Virus record (IMG/VR): IMGVR_UViG_2563366854_000001
Location: 1 to 22,290 of that record
Reading direction: 5' to 3' (one strand)
DNA from: a virus
Taxonomy: Duplodnaviria; Heunggongvirae; Uroviricota; Caudoviricetes
Length of the DNA: 22,290 nucleotides
Position numbers and translations under genes: made by a program. Under the pieces are notes generated by a model, which saw nothing but the letters and a program-made list of their open reading frames with translations, was not told where the DNA came from and did not search any database. Within the stretch, counting starts at the first letter, position 1. Every line of letters starts with the position of its first letter. Positions 1 to 11,661 of this stretch are shown piece after piece.

Positions 1-1164
1 TTACGCCTTCTTTATATCCTCCATAATTCCACAGTGGGACATATTTGGGACATTATCACCAAAAATGTCGTCTATTTTCCTTGCATGCTCTGTCAAATGA
101 TTAGGCGCAAGGTGAGCATACCTACGAACCATTTCTATGGACTCCCATCCGCCCATTTCCTGAAGCACAGATAATGGGACGCCTGACTGGATCAGCCAGC
201 TTGCCCAGGTGTGTCTGAGGTCATGGAAACGGAAATCTTCAATTCCTGCACGACGACAAGCTGATAGCCATGATGTCTTGCTGTCGATGCGCATCTTCCT
301 GACCGCAGGCGTTGATGTTCCATCTGCTCGCTTAGCCGCCTTGGTATGTACAAACACCCATTTGTGATGCTTGCCTATTTGATCACGCAACACTTTACAG
401 GCGGTATCGTTCAGCGCCACACCAATGGCGCGGTTTGATTTGCTCTCTTCTGGATTCACCCAGGCAACTCGTCGCTGCATGTCGATTTGTTGCCATTCCA
501 GATTTATGATGTTCGACTTTCTCAGACCAGTTGCCAGCGCAAACTTGACGACAGATTTCAGTGGTTCGGGGCACTCATCAATAAGGCGTTTTGCTTCCTC
601 CTTTTCCAGCCATCTGACTCGCTTGTTTCTGACCGCTGGTATCTTGATGACAGGCGCTTTTTCCAGCCACTTCCAGTCGCGTTCTGCAGCACGGAGAATG
701 GCCTTTATCATGGCAAGATGCTTTGCCTTTGTCTGAGTTGATACTGGCTTTGGTTCATAAACAGGCGGTTCTTTACCTTTCCTGATGGCGGCCTGAACTT
801 TCTGTTTCCATATTTCTTTCGTCTTTCTGTTATGCATTCTGCTTACAGCAGAGTAAATCTTTGCCTCCGAGATATCTTTAAGCCTTATACCCTCAAAATG
901 TTCAAGCCAGAACTCAATCCGGCTTTTATCTGAATCGAGAGATTTTTTATCAGCTTTTTCCTCAAGCCATCTTAGGCAGGCCTCTTCAAAAGTGACATCA
1001 GGTAAATCCCCTAGCTTTTCTACTCGCCAGAGTTCTGCTTTTCGCTTGTCGTGCAACTCCTGAGCTTGCCGCTTGTCCTTTGTGCCAAGAGATTCCTTAA
1101 TTCGTTTCCCGCCCGGGAGCGAATACGAGGCATACCATATTTCATTTCTGCGGAAGAGTGACAT
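1..1164 (-). CDS. int: Phage integrase, tyrosine recombinase family
   Basis: 387-aa ORF; C-terminal region carries the tyrosine-recombinase pattern (HDLRHTWAS...LGGW...RRYAH); start ATG at 1162-1164 preceded by AGGAAAG; sits at the prophage end next to an Xis-like gene. Confidence 0.9.
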
Positions 1165-2585: not shown

Positions 2586-2679
2586 TTTGTTCTCCACGTA
2601 TATGCACTGCACCGCGCTGAATTCTGGTAAAAGGAAGCCCTCACCATCCGGTGATTATTGAGTTAATTACGTTTCCATA

Positions 2680-2701
2680 AATGCCCCCGCAGGGGCATTT
2701 G
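2680..2701. terminator. Perfect 9-bp-stem hairpin between the YfdQ-like and HD-domain genes (possible intra-operon attenuator or bidirectional terminator)
   Basis: AAATGCCCC-CGCA-GGGGCATTT; A/T tracts are part of the stem; no separate U-tract. Confidence 0.3.
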
Positions 2702-2712
2702 CAGTAATGAAA

Positions 2713-3537
2713 TCAGGCGGTGAAAGTACCAATAAAGGTTTCTACTTTGCTGTCTTTGAATTTCTCAACAAGCAGATCACGAAATTCGTTAGCCATTTCT
2801 TCCTGCACCGCTTCCAGCTGAATAATGCGCAGAACCAGTACAGGACGATCGCCAGTGATAATGCTGAGGCGTAATTTAAACGGACGTTCTTTCAGACCTT
2901 CAAACGGAACGCATTTAAATTCAAATGCCACTGGCATAATGTCTTTGGTCTTCGCTTCGACAGACTCCATCAGGGAGCGTTTGCCGCTGAAGTCATTATC
3001 TTCAAAATCAGCGGTCTGGTTTGCTTCAATCGTGATTTTACGGACTGCCGCAGCCGCTTTTGTTGCTTGAATGGCGTCACCATTAGCATCAAAGCCCACA
3101 AGGTAGTCGGCCCAGTCTTCGATCCATTCTGCCAGTGACCTCTGGGAGTTACGCTCGCCGTTAACAGACAACAGAGCAGAGAACGGTGCTGTCTTTTTCA
3201 GTTTGAGAGTGGCAGTGTTATCTGCGTGACCTGGCTCATCAATAGTACCCAGGTTAAGCACACTGACGGCACGCATATTATCGGCATCGATAAAGCAGCG
3301 GGTGCCTTCATCTGCAAGATCTTTAGAATAACGGGTAAAATCATCGATGCTGGCAGTGGAAAGTGCACCACGGAAACGGAAGCGATTTAAATTAAATTTT
3401 TCCAGATCATGAATGCGGAAATTCTCAGGCAATGCCACAGCATCGGCACCAATCTTACTGATAATTTCATTAACACCCTGAGCAGAAATAAGGGCATGGA
3501 TTTGATTAATTGCGGTTGCGTCTAAGTTCTGAGACAT
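2713..3537 (-). CDS. Conserved prophage protein, YfdQ-like
   Basis: 274-aa ORF with GAGGA 7 nt upstream of ATG; length and neighbourhood match the yfdQ position of KplE1/CPS-53-type prophages (recognition from memory). Confidence 0.65.
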
Positions 3538-3602
3538 AATAAGTCCTCACTATATAAAGATATTCAGTGATGAGATAAATAATCAGTTTATTACGAACGA
3601 TA

Positions 3603-3965
3603 TTAACGACCTGCTGCGCGGAGTTTTCCGTCAGGTTCACCGGCAAGAGTCAGTAATTGTCCCTGGTCTTCCTGCAGAATAGTCAGGCGACCACCGCGAT
3701 TGACATACATCGGCGTTTCGGTGGTGTCTTCTTCGGAAATTTTCCCGCGGTTAGTTGGGCGAACATATGAGAGTTTGTGTTTGATTTTCACACGGTTCTC
3801 ATCAAACGGTTCGATTTCCAGATTGAGTGAGACCTTCCCTTTGGTTTTCGTGTTCATCACACCGGAAGCGACCTCACTGAGAACTGCGCCGATTTTGGTT
3901 TCAAATACGCCGCCGTCCAGCTCCCCGATAAATGCCTGCACATCAGTACTGCGTTCGCTAGCCAT
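3603..3965 (-). CDS. Hypothetical phage protein (YfdP-like by size and position)
   Basis: Start at internal Met MASERSTD (GAGGAG-N8-ATG at 3963-3965); 120 aa. The longer 182-aa ORF upstream of this Met lies in GC-rich non-coding-looking sequence. Confidence 0.6.
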   Translation of the reverse strand: MASERSTDVQAFIGELDGGVFETKIGAVLSEVASGVMNTKTKGKVSLNLEIEPFDENRVKIKHKLSYVRPTNRGKISEEDTTETPMYVNRGGRLTILQEDQGQLLTLAGEPDGKLRAAGR

Positions 3966-4426
3966 TTTGCTGCTCCTCATCATATCGACCCTGCAAGGTC
4001 GGTTGGTTTCTCCACAAAACAGAGAAGAACACCTGCGGTGGCAGCCGCCCGGATGGATTGGGTTATGAGCCCGTCGTCCGGTGATGCTCTTCTCTGTTTT
4101 GTAAAAAGAGCGGTGCCAGCCGGAAGCAAGTGTACAAACTGGTACCGCCAAAGCAGTGGCTGTTGTGGTGCCGGGTGCCTCCCGGTGCCTGGCGAAGGTT
4201 GCACACCAGGCGGGTGGGTATCCACAGAAGGTCGACTGTCAGCCTCAACCTTAACCCGCGTGCGCTGAGCCGCATTCACCACAACGCTAAGGATTCTCTC
4301 TGGTTGAAAATACTTAGCTGTTATGTGCCTGCTTTTAGCCACATCAGGCGAGGTGGACCTGGTTATTCCCCAACAACAAGGATTCGGTTAATCTTGATAC
4401 CCCCAATAACATGGTGATTATTTAAG
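3966..4426. promoter_or_regulatory. GC-rich ORF-free divergent intergenic region with a long inverted repeat; candidate divergent promoters and/or structured RNA
   Basis: All frames carry overlapping junk-like ORFs; 17-bp inverted repeat (4015-4031 vs 4085-4101, one mismatch) enclosing a 53-nt GC-rich segment; flanked by divergently transcribed genes. Confidence 0.3.
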
Positions 4427-4930
4427 ATGGACAAATTTGATAGAAGTGCACAAAGGCAGTTGTTACAAATACTGTATGATGCTCATCCTTATGAAATTTC
4501 TGATGATGCGTTGCAGTCTGTTCGTGACGCATTTGGAGATGATAATGTCCTAATTTCGAACTTAATTTATCTCGAAGAACATGGCTTGATTAAGAATGCT
4601 CTTGATTATTACTTGGATGGCATAAATATAAATATTCCTGAATTAAGAATTACTAAAGATGGAATTGATTTCATTCGTGATGATGGAGGTCTTAAAGCTA
4701 TTCTTGGGATTATGACAATAAGATTGCATGATGAGACTCTCTGTGAACTTGAACGTATCATCAATAGTTCTACTTCTGCCACGACTGAAGATAAGAAGAA
4801 ATTACTCTCTCAGCTTCGAACGCTTCCTGCCGACGCCATAAAACAGCTGACGATTCGATTACTTGGTCAGGGGCTTGACCATCTGCCGGACGTATTTCAC
4901 GTAATTCAAAAAGCCCTCCATTCTCTGTAA
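4427..4930 (+). CDS. Hypothetical protein, putative N-terminal winged-helix domain (AT-rich accessory gene)
   Basis: 167-aa ORF starting at ATG 4427; AT-rich codon usage unlike flanking genes; motifs LIYLEEHGLIKN and ITKDGIDFI resemble wHTH recognition helix and wing. Confidence 0.6.
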   Translation: MDKFDRSAQRQLLQILYDAHPYEISDDALQSVRDAFGDDNVLISNLIYLEEHGLIKNALDYYLDGININIPELRITKDGIDFIRDDGGLKAILGIMTIRLHDETLCELERIINSSTSATTEDKKKLLSQLRTLPADAIKQLTIRLLGQGLDHLPDVFHVIQKALHSL

Positions 4931-5108
4931 ATTCTGATTCTGGTCGGATTAGACAGAATCGTCCCCATCCGACCTGCTTACTAAGTAGAATCCAGAATTC
5001 GTCTTGTTGGTTGGTGCTGATAAAAAATCCATTAGGATGAACGTAAGCACAGAATATGACCATAGAACCCTCTTTTGTTACGGGGATACTAAGATTGTTA
5101 AAGAGCTA

Positions 5109-5131
5109 AGCGTCCTGTAGGGCGCTTTTTT
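5109..5131 (+). terminator. Rho-independent terminator-like hairpin
   Basis: AGCGTCC-TGTA-GGGCGCT (7-bp stem with one G-U pair) followed by TTTTTT; about 180 nt downstream of the 4427..4930 stop. Confidence 0.5.
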
Positions 5132-6700: not shown

Positions 6701-7462
6701 CTAAAGCCGGTTGTATTTAATTGATTCGTGTATCAATGCTTTGCCCATAACATAAAGTTGATCTTGGGACTTCTCATCAATGTACCATTTCTCATAGGCT
6801 GGATTATCCGAAAGAACGGCGAGTTTGTTGCCTTGCATTTGTAGACGTTTAACGTGGAACGTCTTACCATAAACGAAAGAGTAAACACCATCAGTTTGGA
6901 AGTTGCGAACAGAAATGTCGACAAACAGTCGATCTCCGGAAACTAGAGTAGGGGACATGCTGTCGCCATTTACAGTCATAACTTTAATATCATCTTGAGA
7001 ACGATTACCGAAAAGAGAACGGGCATGCTCTGTTGTGAACTCAATGGCGTAGAGCACATCAACATAGTCTGAAAGCATATAGGTTCCAGGTCCTGCGCTA
7101 ACGCTAAGATCCAAAACTTCTATCCTGTATACATCGGGTTTTGTTGGATTGGGGATGCTTGCCATTTCCTTACATCCTTCTCTCTCGCCAACACCATATT
7201 CTAAATATGAAGCTGATACCCCCAGAGCCAATGCAAGTTTATTCATGACAGAGGCACGAGGCTTCGCAGCGCCGATTGTGTATCGCCGCGCCATTTCATA
7301 TGTAACGCCCACAAGACTTTTGAGTTGGGTGACAGAAATTCCCTTGTTTGTCATTAGCTCGTTTAGTCTCTTGGCGAAATCTGGATACTTCTGTTCTTCT
7401 ACCATAGGTAGAAGGTTACTCGCATCACATACGCTAGTCATTTCTATTTTAAGTAGTTGCAT
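6701..7462 (-). CDS. cI-like prophage repressor (XRE-type HTH plus S24 LexA-like peptidase domain)
   Basis: HTH LMTNKGISVTQLKSLVGVTYEMARRY; Ala-Gly cleavage-site-like SAGPG; S24 motifs VNGDSMSPTL and KRL. Start is ambiguous (7462, 7441 or 7405) with no strong SD, so it may be leaderless. Confidence 0.85.
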   Translation of the reverse strand: MQLLKIEMTSVCDASNLLPMVEEQKYPDFAKRLNELMTNKGISVTQLKSLVGVTYEMARRYTIGAAKPRASVMNKLALALGVSASYLEYGVGEREGCKEMASIPNPTKPDVYRIEVLDLSVSAGPGTYMLSDYVDVLYAIEFTTEHARSLFGNRSQDDIKVMTVNGDSMSPTLVSGDRLFVDISVRNFQTDGVYSFVYGKTFHVKRLQMQGNKLAVLSDNPAYEKWYIDEKSQDQLYVMGKALIHESIKYNRL

Positions 7463-7511: not shown

Positions 7512-7775
7512 ATGTCATCTCAAAACTACACAGAGAAAGCAGTAAAAGCTGCGGGAAAATCTTTATCTGAAGTAGCCCGTCACTTTGGTTTTAAGTCCAC
7601 TCAATCCGTCGCTAATTGGGTAATTAACAATCAAGTCCCGTCAGAACGGGTTTTACAACTTTGTGAGTTGGGAAACTGGTCCGTGACCCCTCATGAACTG
7701 CGTCCTGATATTTACCCCAATCCAAATGATGGATTACCTGAGTGCTATTCAAAAGTTAGCGGTTCAGCTGCGTAA
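7512..7775 (+). CDS. Cro/YdaS-like HTH regulator
   Basis: 87-aa ORF with GGAGAAAGG upstream; divergent from cI across the operators; C-terminal ELRPDIY resembles the YdaS family (memory-based). Confidence 0.7.
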   Translation: MSSQNYTEKAVKAAGKSLSEVARHFGFKSTQSVANWVINNQVPSERVLQLCELGNWSVTPHELRPDIYPNPNDGLPECYSKVSGSAA

Positions 7776-10132: not shown

Positions 10133-10458
10133 TGACGACGTTAACTCAATGCCAGCAGCAGGTGCTGGATATGCTGATTTCTTACCAGAAAGAACGTGGC
10201 TTCCCGCCAACCAATCAGGAGGTGGCTACCATGCTGGGATACCGTTCAGTGAATGCAGCGGTGGAGCATCTTCGCGCACTGGAGAAAAAAGGCGTCATCA
10301 CGATAAAGCGTGGCGTGGCCCGGGGCATCACGCTTCATACCGCGGTGAAGGACGACGACAGCGAGGTGGCCGGGATTATCCGCGCACTGCTTGCTGGTGA
10401 GGAAAACGCCAGGCTGCGTGCAGCCCACTGGTTACATGAGAGGGGGCTGAAAGTATGA
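10132..10458 (+). CDS. LexA DNA-binding-domain-like protein lacking the S24 peptidase domain
   Basis: MTTLTQCQQQVLDML...GFPPTNQEVATMLGYRSVNAAVEHLRALEKKGVI...RGI aligns by eye with the LexA N-terminal winged HTH (LTARQQEVFDLI...[36 protein letters not shown]); only 108 aa; TAATG coupling with the upstream gene. Confidence 0.75.
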   Translation: MTTLTQCQQQVLDMLISYQKERGFPPTNQEVATMLGYRSVNAAVEHLRALEKKGVITIKRGVARGITLHTAVKDDDSEVAGIIRALLAGEENARLRAAHWLHERGLKV

Positions 10459-10844
10459 AGCTGATTCTGCCTTTTCCACCCAGCGTGAACACCTACTGGC
10501 GACACCCCAACAAAGTGGCATTTGCTGGTAAGAGCCTGATAAGCGCGGCGGGGCGAAAATTCCAGAGTGCGGCGTGCACAGCAATAGTTGAGCAGTTACG
10601 TCGTCTGCCGAAACCAACGTCGGCACCTGCTTCAGTGGAGATCGTGTTGTTTCCTCCGGATAACCGGATCCGCGATCTGGACAACTATAACAAGGCGCTG
10701 TTTGACGCCCTGACCCACGCGGGTGTGTGGGAAGACGACAGCCAGGTGAAAAGAATGCTGGTGGAGTGGGGACCGGTTATCCCGGAAGGGAAGGTCGAGA
10801 TCACTATCAGTAAGTACGAGAAAACGGCGGGTGCAGCCGCCTGA
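10455..10844 (+). CDS. rusA: RusA-family Holliday junction resolvase
   Basis: 129 aa; LPFPPSVNTYWRH and DLDNYNKALFDALT motifs characteristic of RusA; ATGA overlap with the upstream stop. Confidence 0.9.
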   Translation: MKLILPFPPSVNTYWRHPNKVAFAGKSLISAAGRKFQSAACTAIVEQLRRLPKPTSAPASVEIVLFPPDNRIRDLDNYNKALFDALTHAGVWEDDSQVKRMLVEWGPVIPEGKVEITISKYEKTAGAAA

Positions 10845-10863: not shown

Positions 10864-11661
10864 ATGAATAATCTGATGGTCATTGATGGTATTGAAGTTC
10901 GTCGTGATGCTTATGGGCGTTACAGCCTGAACGATCTGCACAGGGCTGCCGGTTCTCTGGATAAGCATAAGCCTGCATTCTGGCTCCGCAATGAGCAAAC
11001 TGAACGTTTAATAAGCGAGTTGCAGATTTGCAACTCGGTCAATATAGAGCCAGTTAACGTTATTCGTGGCGGAAATAACCAGGGGACGTATGTCTGCAAA
11101 GAACTGGTGTATGCCTATGCAATGTGGATCAGCCCGTCATTCCATCTGAAGGTGATCCGTACTTTCGATATGGTAACCAGCGCATCGGAAAAATTATCCG
11201 GGCAGGCTGCTGACAAGATGCAGGCTGGCGTGATTCTGCTGGACTTTATGCGCCGGGAGTTAAACCTGTCTAACTCTTCAGTGCTTGGTGCCTGTCAGAA
11301 ACTCCAGGAGGCTGTTGGCTTACCGAATCTGGCACCGCGCTATGCCATTGATGCTCCTGCTGACGCGCCTGATGGCTCAAGCCGTCCCACGCTGTCACTG
11401 AGTGCACTGCTGAAGCAGTATGGTATCCGCCTGACAGCTAATCAGGCATATCACCAGATGGTGAAGCTGGGGATCGTCGAGCAGCGCGAACGATACAGCC
11501 GTACCGCGATTAACAACATCAAAAAATTCTGGTCGCTGACAGCGAAAGGCTGCATGTTCGGCAAGAACATCACCAGTCCCGCAAATCCGCGCGAGACGCA
11601 GCCGCATTTCTTCGAATCCCGATTCCCTGAGCTGTTAAAGCTGCTCGATACCGTTCATTGA
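10864..11661 (+). CDS. KilA-N domain protein (Bro/antirepressor-like)
   Basis: Start at internal Met MNNLMVIDG (GAGGAGAAACGAAGT-ATG); N-terminal KilA-N-like pattern (YSLNDLHRAAG ... GTYVCKELVYAYAMWISPSFHLKVI). Confidence 0.75.
   Translation: MNNLMVIDGIEVRRDAYGRYSLNDLHRAAGSLDKHKPAFWLRNEQTERLISELQICNSVNIEPVNVIRGGNNQGTYVCKELVYAYAMWISPSFHLKVIRTFDMVTSASEKLSGQAADKMQAGVILLDFMRRELNLSNSSVLGACQKLQEAVGLPNLAPRYAIDAPADAPDGSSRPTLSLSALLKQYGIRLTANQAYHQMVKLGIVEQRERYSRTAINNIKKFWSLTAKGCMFGKNITSPANPRETQPHFFESRFPELLKLLDTVH

Follow-up and report, generated by a model that had tools for sequence, protein, structure and literature searches.

A covarying hairpin between yfdQ and yfdR in the leftward early operon of a lambdoid prophage and its possible role in RNA processing or stability

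Genomic context of the hairpin

The DNA analyzed here is a 22,290-nt stretch of a virus of the class Caudoviricetes (IMG/VR record IMGVR_UViG_2563366854_000001, positions 1 to 22,290; hereafter the window), and our subject is a hairpin, designated hp1, which lies between its genes yfdQ and yfdR and which we tentatively regard as a signal that acts on the messenger RNA after transcription. The inverted repeat AAATGCCCC-CGCA-GGGGCATTT, a perfect 9-bp stem with a 4-nt loop, occupies positions 2679-2700 on the minus strand, as follows from reading of the sequence and from covariation in 69 aligned homologues and 83 distinct variants; an earlier note on this DNA had rightly described it as perfect but had placed it one base to the right, at 2680-2701. 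The RNA of the minus (coding) strand reads AAAUGCCCC-UGCG-GGGGCAUUU, with a UNCG-type tetraloop and a C-G closing pair. Five of the nine pairs are G-C, and the stem-loop has the size of that of an intrinsic terminator (5-14 bp, short loop). The free energy of the isolated hairpin is -15.0 kcal/mol, and the folding check on both strands in a 61-nt context bore the structure out, with -17.5 kcal/mol on each strand (z about -2). From the yfdQ stop codon to the start of the hairpin there are 12 nt.

The gene upstream of the hairpin, yfdQ (DUF2303, phrog_210), is located at 2713-3537, and the downstream one, yfdR (phrog_318), encoding an HD-domain 5'-deoxynucleotidase, at 2049-2585, both on the minus strand. 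The other genes of the leftward operon, also on the minus strand, are int (1-1164), xis (1023-1475), a yfdT-like open reading frame (ORF; 1394-1696), yfdS (1699-2058) and yfdP (3603-3965); there is also a cI-like repressor gene (6701-7462), and cro, on the plus strand, has its start at 7512. Since the flanking genes are all on the minus strand, and considering the placement of the cI-like gene and cro, this segment is the leftward early operon of a lambdoid prophage, in agreement with the earlier note. The same note gave the gap between the YfdQ-like and the HD-domain genes as 127 bp, and this is indeed its length (2586-2712), the borders being the yfdQ stop codon (2713-2715) and the yfdR ATG (2585-2583). 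An alternative GTG start upstream, at 2612, appears in the ORF list; the annotations of Escherichia coli K-12 and of phage SfV use the yfdR ATG. The Shine-Dalgarno sequence of yfdR, GGAGAA, was read from the sequence at 2590-2595 (minus strand) and is conserved in the alignment. As to its remark that the other genes of the operon are translationally coupled, it is right only in part: yfdP and yfdQ stand 65 nt apart, separated by an AT-rich, hairpin-free gap (3538-3602, minus strand), so coupling is not universal in the operon. A promoter scan of the window called no promoter on the minus strand within the yfdQ-yfdR gap.

The presence of such a palindrome is not by itself telling. A shuffled 22-kb window should contain 0.49 perfect stems of 9 bp or more with loops of 3-8 nt, and 33% of shuffles have one; at this frequency the sequence alone proves nothing about the hairpin. 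That the hairpin is real follows from its placement in the 127-nt gap and, above all, from its conservation with covariation.

Distribution of the hairpin

The yfdP-yfdQ-gap-yfdR-yfdS-yfdT block is present in 2997 of 5426 complete E. coli genomes. In the cryptic prophage CPS-53 of E. coli K-12 the hairpin is found at 2474869-2474890 of NC_000913.3, on the plus strand. The block is also carried by the Shigella serotype-converting phages SfV and SfIV, by mEp460, by Stx2c-converting phages and by others, and in Salmonella phage ST64B its hairpin lies between sb36 and sb35. E. coli genomes have a median of one such place and at most five, all of them in the setting of a yfdQ/yfdR prophage; the many dispersed copies per genome that characterize repetitive extragenic palindromes (REP) and bacterial interspersed mosaic elements were thus not found in E. 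coli, the median being one copy.

A search of species-representative genomes with YfdQ revealed 32 loci, with YfdQ proteins 55-75% identical, in Buttiauxella, Serratia, Phytobacter, Kosakonia, Izhakiella, Mixta, Erwinia, Citrobacter, Klebsiella, Kluyvera, Enterobacter and Pseudocitrobacter, among others. Nearly all of these loci have a hairpin at the equivalent spot after the yfdQ stop codon, with a different sequence: the stem variants include AAAUGCCCC/GGGGCAUUU, UUAAUUGCCCUGC/GCGGGGCAAUUAG, UAAAUCCCCG/CGGGGAUUUA, UUAAUAGCCCCCG/CGGGGGUUAUUAG, UUAAGUGCCCU/GGGGUACUUAG and UCAAAUACCCCA/UGGGGUAUUUGG. The whole window gave no gathering-level match in Rfam 15, and at E values up to 10 the leaders of the window and of one homologue (L018) produced only noise (E > 0.4).

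Covariation and strand of the structure

Stem instances anchored at the stem base were collected from 281 loci and gave at least 83 distinct versions, from prophages of Escherichia, Shigella, Salmonella (ST64B), Citrobacter, Klebsiella, Kluyvera, Erwinia, Mixta, Serratia and further genera. Each of four stem positions is occupied by four pair types in these versions, position 3, for example, by AU in 39, UA in 17, GC in 16 and GU in 11 of them. The loops are of 54 different kinds, 3-9 nt long, and one further type (L201) has a loop of 11 nt. Because the hp1 loop varies so freely, its recognition by a loop-specific protein is unlikely, and a conserved loop of the kind that an N-type protein would read in a nut-type boxB was not found among the 83 variants.

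In an end-anchored alignment of 69 sequences, 88.5% of the cells are standard pairs, as compared with 34-46% after displacement of the 3' partners by one to three columns, although the paired percentage of the upper stem is inflated, as the sequences had been chosen for at least eight contiguous pairs; this choice did not select for diversity of pair types or for pairs of the lower stem, described below. The covariation score of the alignment is 0.326 against 0.142 in shuffles, none of the 500 shuffles reaching the former value, and double-sided changes occur in 9 of the 17 pairs (110 cells). An unselected check gave a stem of at least 8 bp in 104 of 128 unique segments located 5' of an anchor resembling hp2, the next hairpin of the gap; the other segments are spurious anchors, the 11-nt-loop subtype, one-mismatch singletons and two deletion variants. 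MAFFT followed by RNAalifold recovered hp1 only, and the first covariance-model alignment misregistered the third hairpin of the gap, hp3, and part of hp1; the hairpins were therefore re-derived by base-anchored scripts and the end-anchored alignment. A covariance model of the whole gap (R1) finds one sense-strand copy per locus, and in the window its sole sense-strand match is the three-hairpin leader at 2577-2718 on the minus strand (109.6 bits, E 4e-29).

As to the strand, G-U pairs, which on the opposite strand would be A-C mismatches, are frequent in the stems. Of 53 unique variants of the extended hairpin, 46 fold more stably as sense than as antisense RNA (mean energies of -21.2 and -18.3 kcal/mol, respectively), a statistic that is indicative only, the 53 variants being related. 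Among rare stem variants of E. coli, three (L048, L078 and L114) keep the pairing only by way of sense-strand wobble, and two (L055 and L097) have one pair broken. The commonness of G-U pairs and the folding energies of the sense strand lead us to attribute the structure to the leftward mRNA. The comparison shows that selection acts on the pairing of the stem and not on the sequence of the loop, and that the structure under selection is that of the sense strand.

The extended stem-loop and two companion hairpins

The hairpin is the apical 9 bp of an imperfect stem-loop of about 50 nt that begins at the yfdQ stop codon, and the gap holds two more conserved hairpins; the earlier note has neither of these two points. 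The extended hp1 (2666-2715, minus strand) runs in the window from the stop codon UGA (2715-2713) to GUAAU (2670-2666) and consists of a lower stem, an internal loop and an upper stem, an architecture common to 53 unique homologues folded with RNAfold. In most homologues the stop-codon sequence UAAUUGC... pairs, with few mismatches, with GCGUAAUU located 3' of the hairpin, and the lower and upper stems together comprise 17-20 bp over about 22-25 rungs. The 3' strand of the internal loop, RAARCG, is conserved. The lower stem covaries both within the alignment, where column 7-47 is CG in 41, UA in 21 and UG in 7 of the 69 sequences, and between contexts (CGUUU/AAACG versus CGCUU/AAGCG).

Between hp1 and hp2 there is a single-stranded spacer (2655-2665, minus strand), A/U-rich in every homologue, that might serve as an entry site for an endonuclease or another factor. 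It is followed by hp2, UCACC-GGAU-GGUGA (2641-2654, minus strand), whose general form is UCGCC-N3-6-GGCGA and in which 99.7% of cells are paired across 67 leaders. Its stem covaries (GC/GU/AU; UCGCC/GGCGA versus UUGCC/GGCAA), and its loop, of 3-6 nt, may have any sequence. On the 3' side of hp2 lies a conserved motif, GGGCUUCC...ACC in the window (2620-2640, minus strand) and GGGAUUC...AACCAAAA, or GGG(A/C)UUC...ACC, across homologues. The third hairpin, hp3 (2604-2617, minus strand), combines a short GC stem, just 3-4 bp in the window, with the near-invariant hexaloop GUGCAG (2607-2612) and ends 8 nt from the yfdR Shine-Dalgarno sequence; its stems covary while the loop is nearly constant (GCGCG/CGCGC, GCAG/CUGC, GCGCU/AGCGC, GUGCG/CGCAC, UGCGCCA/UGGCGCG). 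A pseudoknot between the hp3 loop and the GUGCA/GCAC linker was considered by eye and discarded, as the pairing is lost in the E. coli and Phytobacter types.

A small ORF in the gap was likewise considered. The mini-ORF AUG-GAA-ACG-UAA, which in E. coli comes right after the hairpin, is not conserved, and in other genera the gap contains an open GUG frame. A coding function of the gap is ruled out, since the hp2 loop of 3, 4, 5 or 6 nt shifts the frame. The mean pairwise identity of the gap is 74%, similar to that of the flanking coding DNA (70-76%). IS1 was encountered in this region more than once: in one locus (L112, at about 2130-2140) it is inserted right after the hp3 loop, and in two E. 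coli chromosomes IS1 copies are annotated inside the matched yfdQ/yfdR region.

Modular arrangement of the leader

One more hairpin of the same kind as hp3 with respect to the loop, hp0 (CGACC-UUGCAG-GGUCG; 3986-4001, minus strand), lies 7 nt 5' of GAGGAG, the Shine-Dalgarno sequence of yfdP. A scan of viral contigs for hp2 together with its 3' motif yielded at least 120 contigs, 107 of them with enough upstream DNA to be examined. Among the matches listed, yfdQ upstream and yfdR downstream were found in 36 of the 107, yfdR only in 13, yfdQ upstream without a yfdR match in one, and neither gene by motif tests in 57, the latter including a few spurious anchor matches and some variant yfdR starts. 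The contigs without yfdQ retain hp1-hp2-hp3, with hp0 directly 5' (GC stem, loop UGGCAG or UUGCAG) and unrelated genes following. In one of the homologues (L198) and in phage mEp390 the contiguous hp0-hp1-hp2-hp3 closes an untranslated leader of about 640 nt, which starts at a pL-like promoter beside the repressor gene; the equivalent leader of the window lies 5' of yfdP. Thus hp0 and hp1, neighbors in a cassette that is unbroken in other phages, are separated in the window by yfdP and yfdQ, which look like an inserted block.

The cassette itself can be taken apart. In Serratia prophages hp1 alone precedes yfdR; in two loci (L011 and L012) hp1 and hp2 stand before another gene and hp3 is missing; in two others (L114 and L181) the whole extended hp1 is kept and divergent foreign DNA follows. 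Two E. coli prophages, L003 (CP073768) and L004 (CP047405), are devoid of hp0, yfdP, yfdQ and the outer 5' arm of hp1: their homology to the window begins inside the hairpin (at 2990-3020), with a 5-bp core GCCCC-U(A/G)CG-GGGGC directly after GGAGAAACUAAC. As the modules are separable in these arrangements, the compared loci show hp1 to be a self-contained module attached to whichever gene or leader is located 5' of it. The hairpins hp0 and hp3, in turn, look like putative recognition sites for a factor.

Several further features were noted in the leader of the window and its relatives. Region 4164-4283 (minus strand) resembles the small RNAs STnc100 and PasD (Rfam STnc100, 35.6 bits, E 2.8e-5, below the gathering score of 47); STnc100 was related to the prophage small RNA PasD in a 2026 preprint. 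After it, upstream of yfdP, comes a terminator-like hairpin with UUUUU (about 4104-4149, minus strand), and both elements are also found in L003 and ST64B. An 18-bp long-range helix, ACAAAACAGAGAAGAGCA/UGUUCUUCUCUGUUUUGU (4085-4102 with 4014-4031, minus strand), encloses about 50 nt just 5' of GGAGAAACCAAC and hp0; L198 has a long-range helix of different sequence at the equivalent place. The resemblance of CGCTCTCA in the L198 leader to boxA is probably coincidental, because CGCTCTCA is the 3' arm of a covarying long-range helix. In the window, a boxA-like sequence AGCTCTTTAACAA (5107-5095, minus strand) matches 12 of the 13 positions of the rrn/nut boxA consensus TGCTCTTTAACAA, with about 0.03 chance matches estimated; it is situated 32 nt 5' of a 97-aa ORF (4770-5063, no PHROG match), abuts a plus-strand terminator (5108-5127), and may be a nutL-like site.

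Outside the leftward leader, the sequence GGCGG-GUGCAG-CCGCC (10826-10841, plus strand) of the rightward operon has the loop and the Shine-Dalgarno spacing of hp0 and hp3, being located 7 nt 5' of GAGGAG and upstream of an ATG at 10865. It forms the end of a 129-aa ORF (10455-10844), which we take to be RusA-like, and is therefore partly coding; it is near-invariant in 119 viral contigs retrieved with a very specific search pattern. In L004, positions 174-362 (minus strand) match the Rfam families C4 antisense RNA (83.6 bits) and IsrK (67 bits) and adjoin a Rha-family gene.

Features related to termination

The consensus terminator scan did not call the site on either strand, and neither strand has a U-run. 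The sense tail reads AUGGAAAC after the full stem and AUUUAUGG after the GC core, with four U in eight; the U-run of intrinsic terminators (about at least five of eight, immediately 3') is absent from the window hairpin. A d'Aubenton-Carafa-type score calculated with modern energy parameters, which is a relative measure only, gave d = +7.8 and a U-tract score T = 2.84 for the sense strand and d = -8.4 and T = 2.55 for the antisense strand, while the canonical terminator of the window at 5108-5127 (plus strand) has d = +22.4 and T = 4.85. In 21 homologues d ranges from -39 to +14 and T from 2.0 to 3.7; in 12 of the 21 d is negative though the hairpin is kept, that is, terminator features are not retained among them. 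The versions of Mixta, Erwinia, Serratia and the leader context have tails such as UUAGUGAAG or CUAAAACG and d of -10 to -39. The positions that follow the stem are consistently occupied by bases other than U, which pair with the 5' flank, and for this reason termination is not the conserved property of the hairpin. The annotation of SfV contains three rho-independent terminators in the region, none of them at the hairpin site, and the paper on yfdQRST (PMC4776307) makes no statement on transcripts.

Discussion

Stem-loops between the cistrons of phage early operons are familiar elements, and the hairpin taken alone looks ordinary. We suppose, with a probability of roughly 40%, that it is an intercistronic RNA processing or stability signal acting after transcription, a proposal that coincides with one of the options of the earlier note, the RNA processing site, with which the evidence is fully compatible. 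According to this proposal, hp1 would be a cis-acting structure of the leftward early mRNA (minus strand of the window). Its long duplex would be a substrate for a double-strand-specific nuclease of the RNase III type, and/or, after a cut in the A/U-rich spacer behind it, its stable GC-rich top would block 3'-to-5' exonucleases. By either route the yfdP-yfdQ and the yfdR-...-xis-int segments of one transcript could acquire different lifetimes and expression levels. RNA polymerase would mostly pass the hairpin, which might be a weak terminator at best; indeed, transcription must continue through the site, because the downstream genes, including xis and int, need it.

Phage RNase III sites have a layout of lower stem, internal loop and upper stem. 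The extended hp1 shares this layout with the RNase III hairpins of phage early mRNAs (T7 R1.1-type; lambda N-leader, nutL-N), as well as the intercistronic or leader position, the irrelevance of the loop sequence, and the occurrence in an early operon whose downstream genes still need to be transcribed. The contiguous order of hp0-hp3, that is, a sequence-specific hairpin, a long hairpin, a Shine-Dalgarno sequence and the first gene, resembles that of boxB, the RNase III hairpin and N. Similar parallels exist with intercistronic stabilizers (the REP in malE-malF, the stem-loops of puf and pap): a GC-rich stem directly after the stop codon, an A/U-rich single strand behind it, and the predicted differential stability of the upstream cistron. 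Unlike REP, however, hp1 is present in a single copy per prophage and belongs to a phage-specific family.

Several observations weigh against this proposal of a processing or stability signal. A site for RNase III should offer about two helical turns (roughly 20-22 bp) of mostly paired RNA, often with an internal loop, and some 22 bp fit the enzyme (PMC6212723); the hp1 helix, which comprises about 17-20 bp and contains mismatches, is near the lower limit. It has no sequence similarity to the phage RNase III hairpins, so that the likeness to them is anatomical only. In hairpins of the E. coli type the lower stem is weaker and may pair in either of two registers, UGAUUUCAU/AUGGAAACG and AUUAC/GUAAU. 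The tails of the E. coli and Citrobacter types are moderately rich in U, with d of 0 to +14, and in the rearranged variant L181 the stem is followed by UUUUU and then by foreign AT-rich DNA, which makes it the only homologue with a proper U-tract. Finally, the Term-seq data for K-12 (Adams et al. 2021, PMC7815308) list no 3' end within 2474700-2475099 and have no yfdQ/yfdR entry; the site is hardly transcribed there, and the same data place a Rho-termination region inside yfdP, at 2473888 (plus strand). The missing 3' ends in K-12 thus say nothing about the site, since Rho stops transcription upstream of it.

The lambda pL operon has a mid-operon terminator, tL3, and the hairpin could similarly be a leaky intrinsic terminator, or attenuator, of the sense strand, causing a partial stop after yfdQ in the lysogen and being read through under processive antitermination by the phage. 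The GC-rich stem, the stable UNCG loop and the borderline d of the window with its tail after the GC core would fit such a role, as would the five U in eight of the Citrobacter and Klebsiella types and the UUUUU of L181; the boxA-like sequence upstream on the same strand indicates that antitermination may operate. The place of hp1 between blocks of early-left genes upstream of xis-int, and its GC-rich stem, are also those of tL2 and tL3, but, unlike these, hp1 has no U-run, its flanks are conserved and mutually paired, and its terminator score is not conserved. The attenuator of the earlier note therefore finds some support in the borderline score of the E. coli version and none in most homologues, whose U-tracts are very poor. 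The site was not called by the scan, its U-tract is interrupted, the versions with strongly negative scores have nonetheless kept the hairpin, and a terminator does not need conserved non-U residues pairing with the 5' flank; the lack of a listed 3' end in K-12 would point in the same direction if the data were informative at this site. We consider the attenuator rather unlikely as an explanation of the family, weak leaky termination in the E. coli and Citrobacter types being weakly possible. Still much less probable is a bidirectional terminator, or one that stops antisense (plus-strand) transcription coming from the side of int. The perfect palindrome flanked by AAA and TTT and the equal folding energies on the two strands of the window speak for this option, which is named in the earlier note, but it does not agree with the plus-strand tail UUUGCAGUAAUG, the negative antisense score, the lack of a U-run on either strand, or the selection on the sense strand only, the many G-U pairs of the homologues turning into A-C mismatches in plus-strand RNA and most variants folding less stably as antisense.

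Nor do we favor, though we give it a chance similar to that of the attenuator, the possibility that hp1 is a structural scaffold in a multi-hairpin regulatory leader (hp0/hp1/hp2/hp3) which is read by a phage or host factor and controls translation or elongation of the next gene, hp1 positioning or insulating the sequence-specific hairpins or keeping Rho off the folded gap. The hairpins hp2 and hp3 nearly always accompany hp1, hp0 and hp3 have covarying stems and a near-invariant hexaloop (G/U)(U/G)GCAG a few nucleotides from a Shine-Dalgarno sequence, the cassette precedes several unrelated genes, and Rho does act in the region in K-12. However, no candidate binding factor was identified, and hp1 appears to work on its own, because the modules are separable, as in the Serratia prophages with hp1 alone, the two loci without hp3 and the two with foreign DNA after hp1. 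A related comparison, with the boxB of nut and rrn sites, is prompted by the occurrence of a short hairpin in an early phage transcript with a boxA-like sequence upstream in the window; in contrast to boxB, with its conserved and recognized loop, the hp1 loop is completely variable, and hp0 or hp3 are likelier boxB-like candidates. The breakpoints of mosaic phages at or near the hairpin, within which the homology of L003 and L004 begins and right after which L114 and L181 diverge, together with the position of yfdP-yfdQ between modules that are adjacent in other phages, could speak for an element acting as DNA, such as a single-strand hairpin or a recombination hotspot marking module junctions. 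This is very improbable: homologous recombination by itself would place junctions in conserved intergenic DNA, no core motif of a recombinase came to light, and the adjacent hairpins linked to Shine-Dalgarno sequences suggest a role of RNA. As for a functionless chance palindrome, such a hairpin is no rarity in 22 kb of shuffled sequence, but the covariation across many genera already refutes chance and leaves this explanation hardly any probability.

Apart from the processing or stability signal proposed for hp1 itself, it is conceivable, albeit doubtful, that the hairpin is one module of a modular RNA leader system of enterobacterial temperate phages that has not been described before. Such a system would consist of the loop-agnostic hp1, of hp2 with GGGAUUC, and of the hexaloop hairpins hp0 and hp3 located 7-12 nt from Shine-Dalgarno sequences. 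Blocks such as yfdP-yfdQ would be slotted between the modules, hp1 would be a processing or insulating unit, and a dedicated RNA-binding factor of the phage or the host would read the hexaloops as a boxB-like antitermination site or as a translational operator.

What is new is a well-supported and widespread structured RNA family without an Rfam counterpart, represented in K-12 and ST64B among others, and its embedding in a modular leader with putative factor-recognition hairpins hp0 and hp3. Owing to its presence in CPS-53 of K-12, SfV, SfIV, the Stx2c phages and ST64B, it can be tested directly in standard strains. The hairpin divides yfdP-yfdQ, a block of unknown function, from yfdR-yfdS-yfdT-xis-int, in which xis and int control excision. 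Chromosome replication is blocked when yfdQRST is overexpressed (PMC4776307). Should the hairpin govern the relative stability or the read-through of the two halves, it would help prophages to keep excision and toxic early genes silent. The family and its two companion hairpins would enlarge the poorly catalogued class of phage regulatory RNA.

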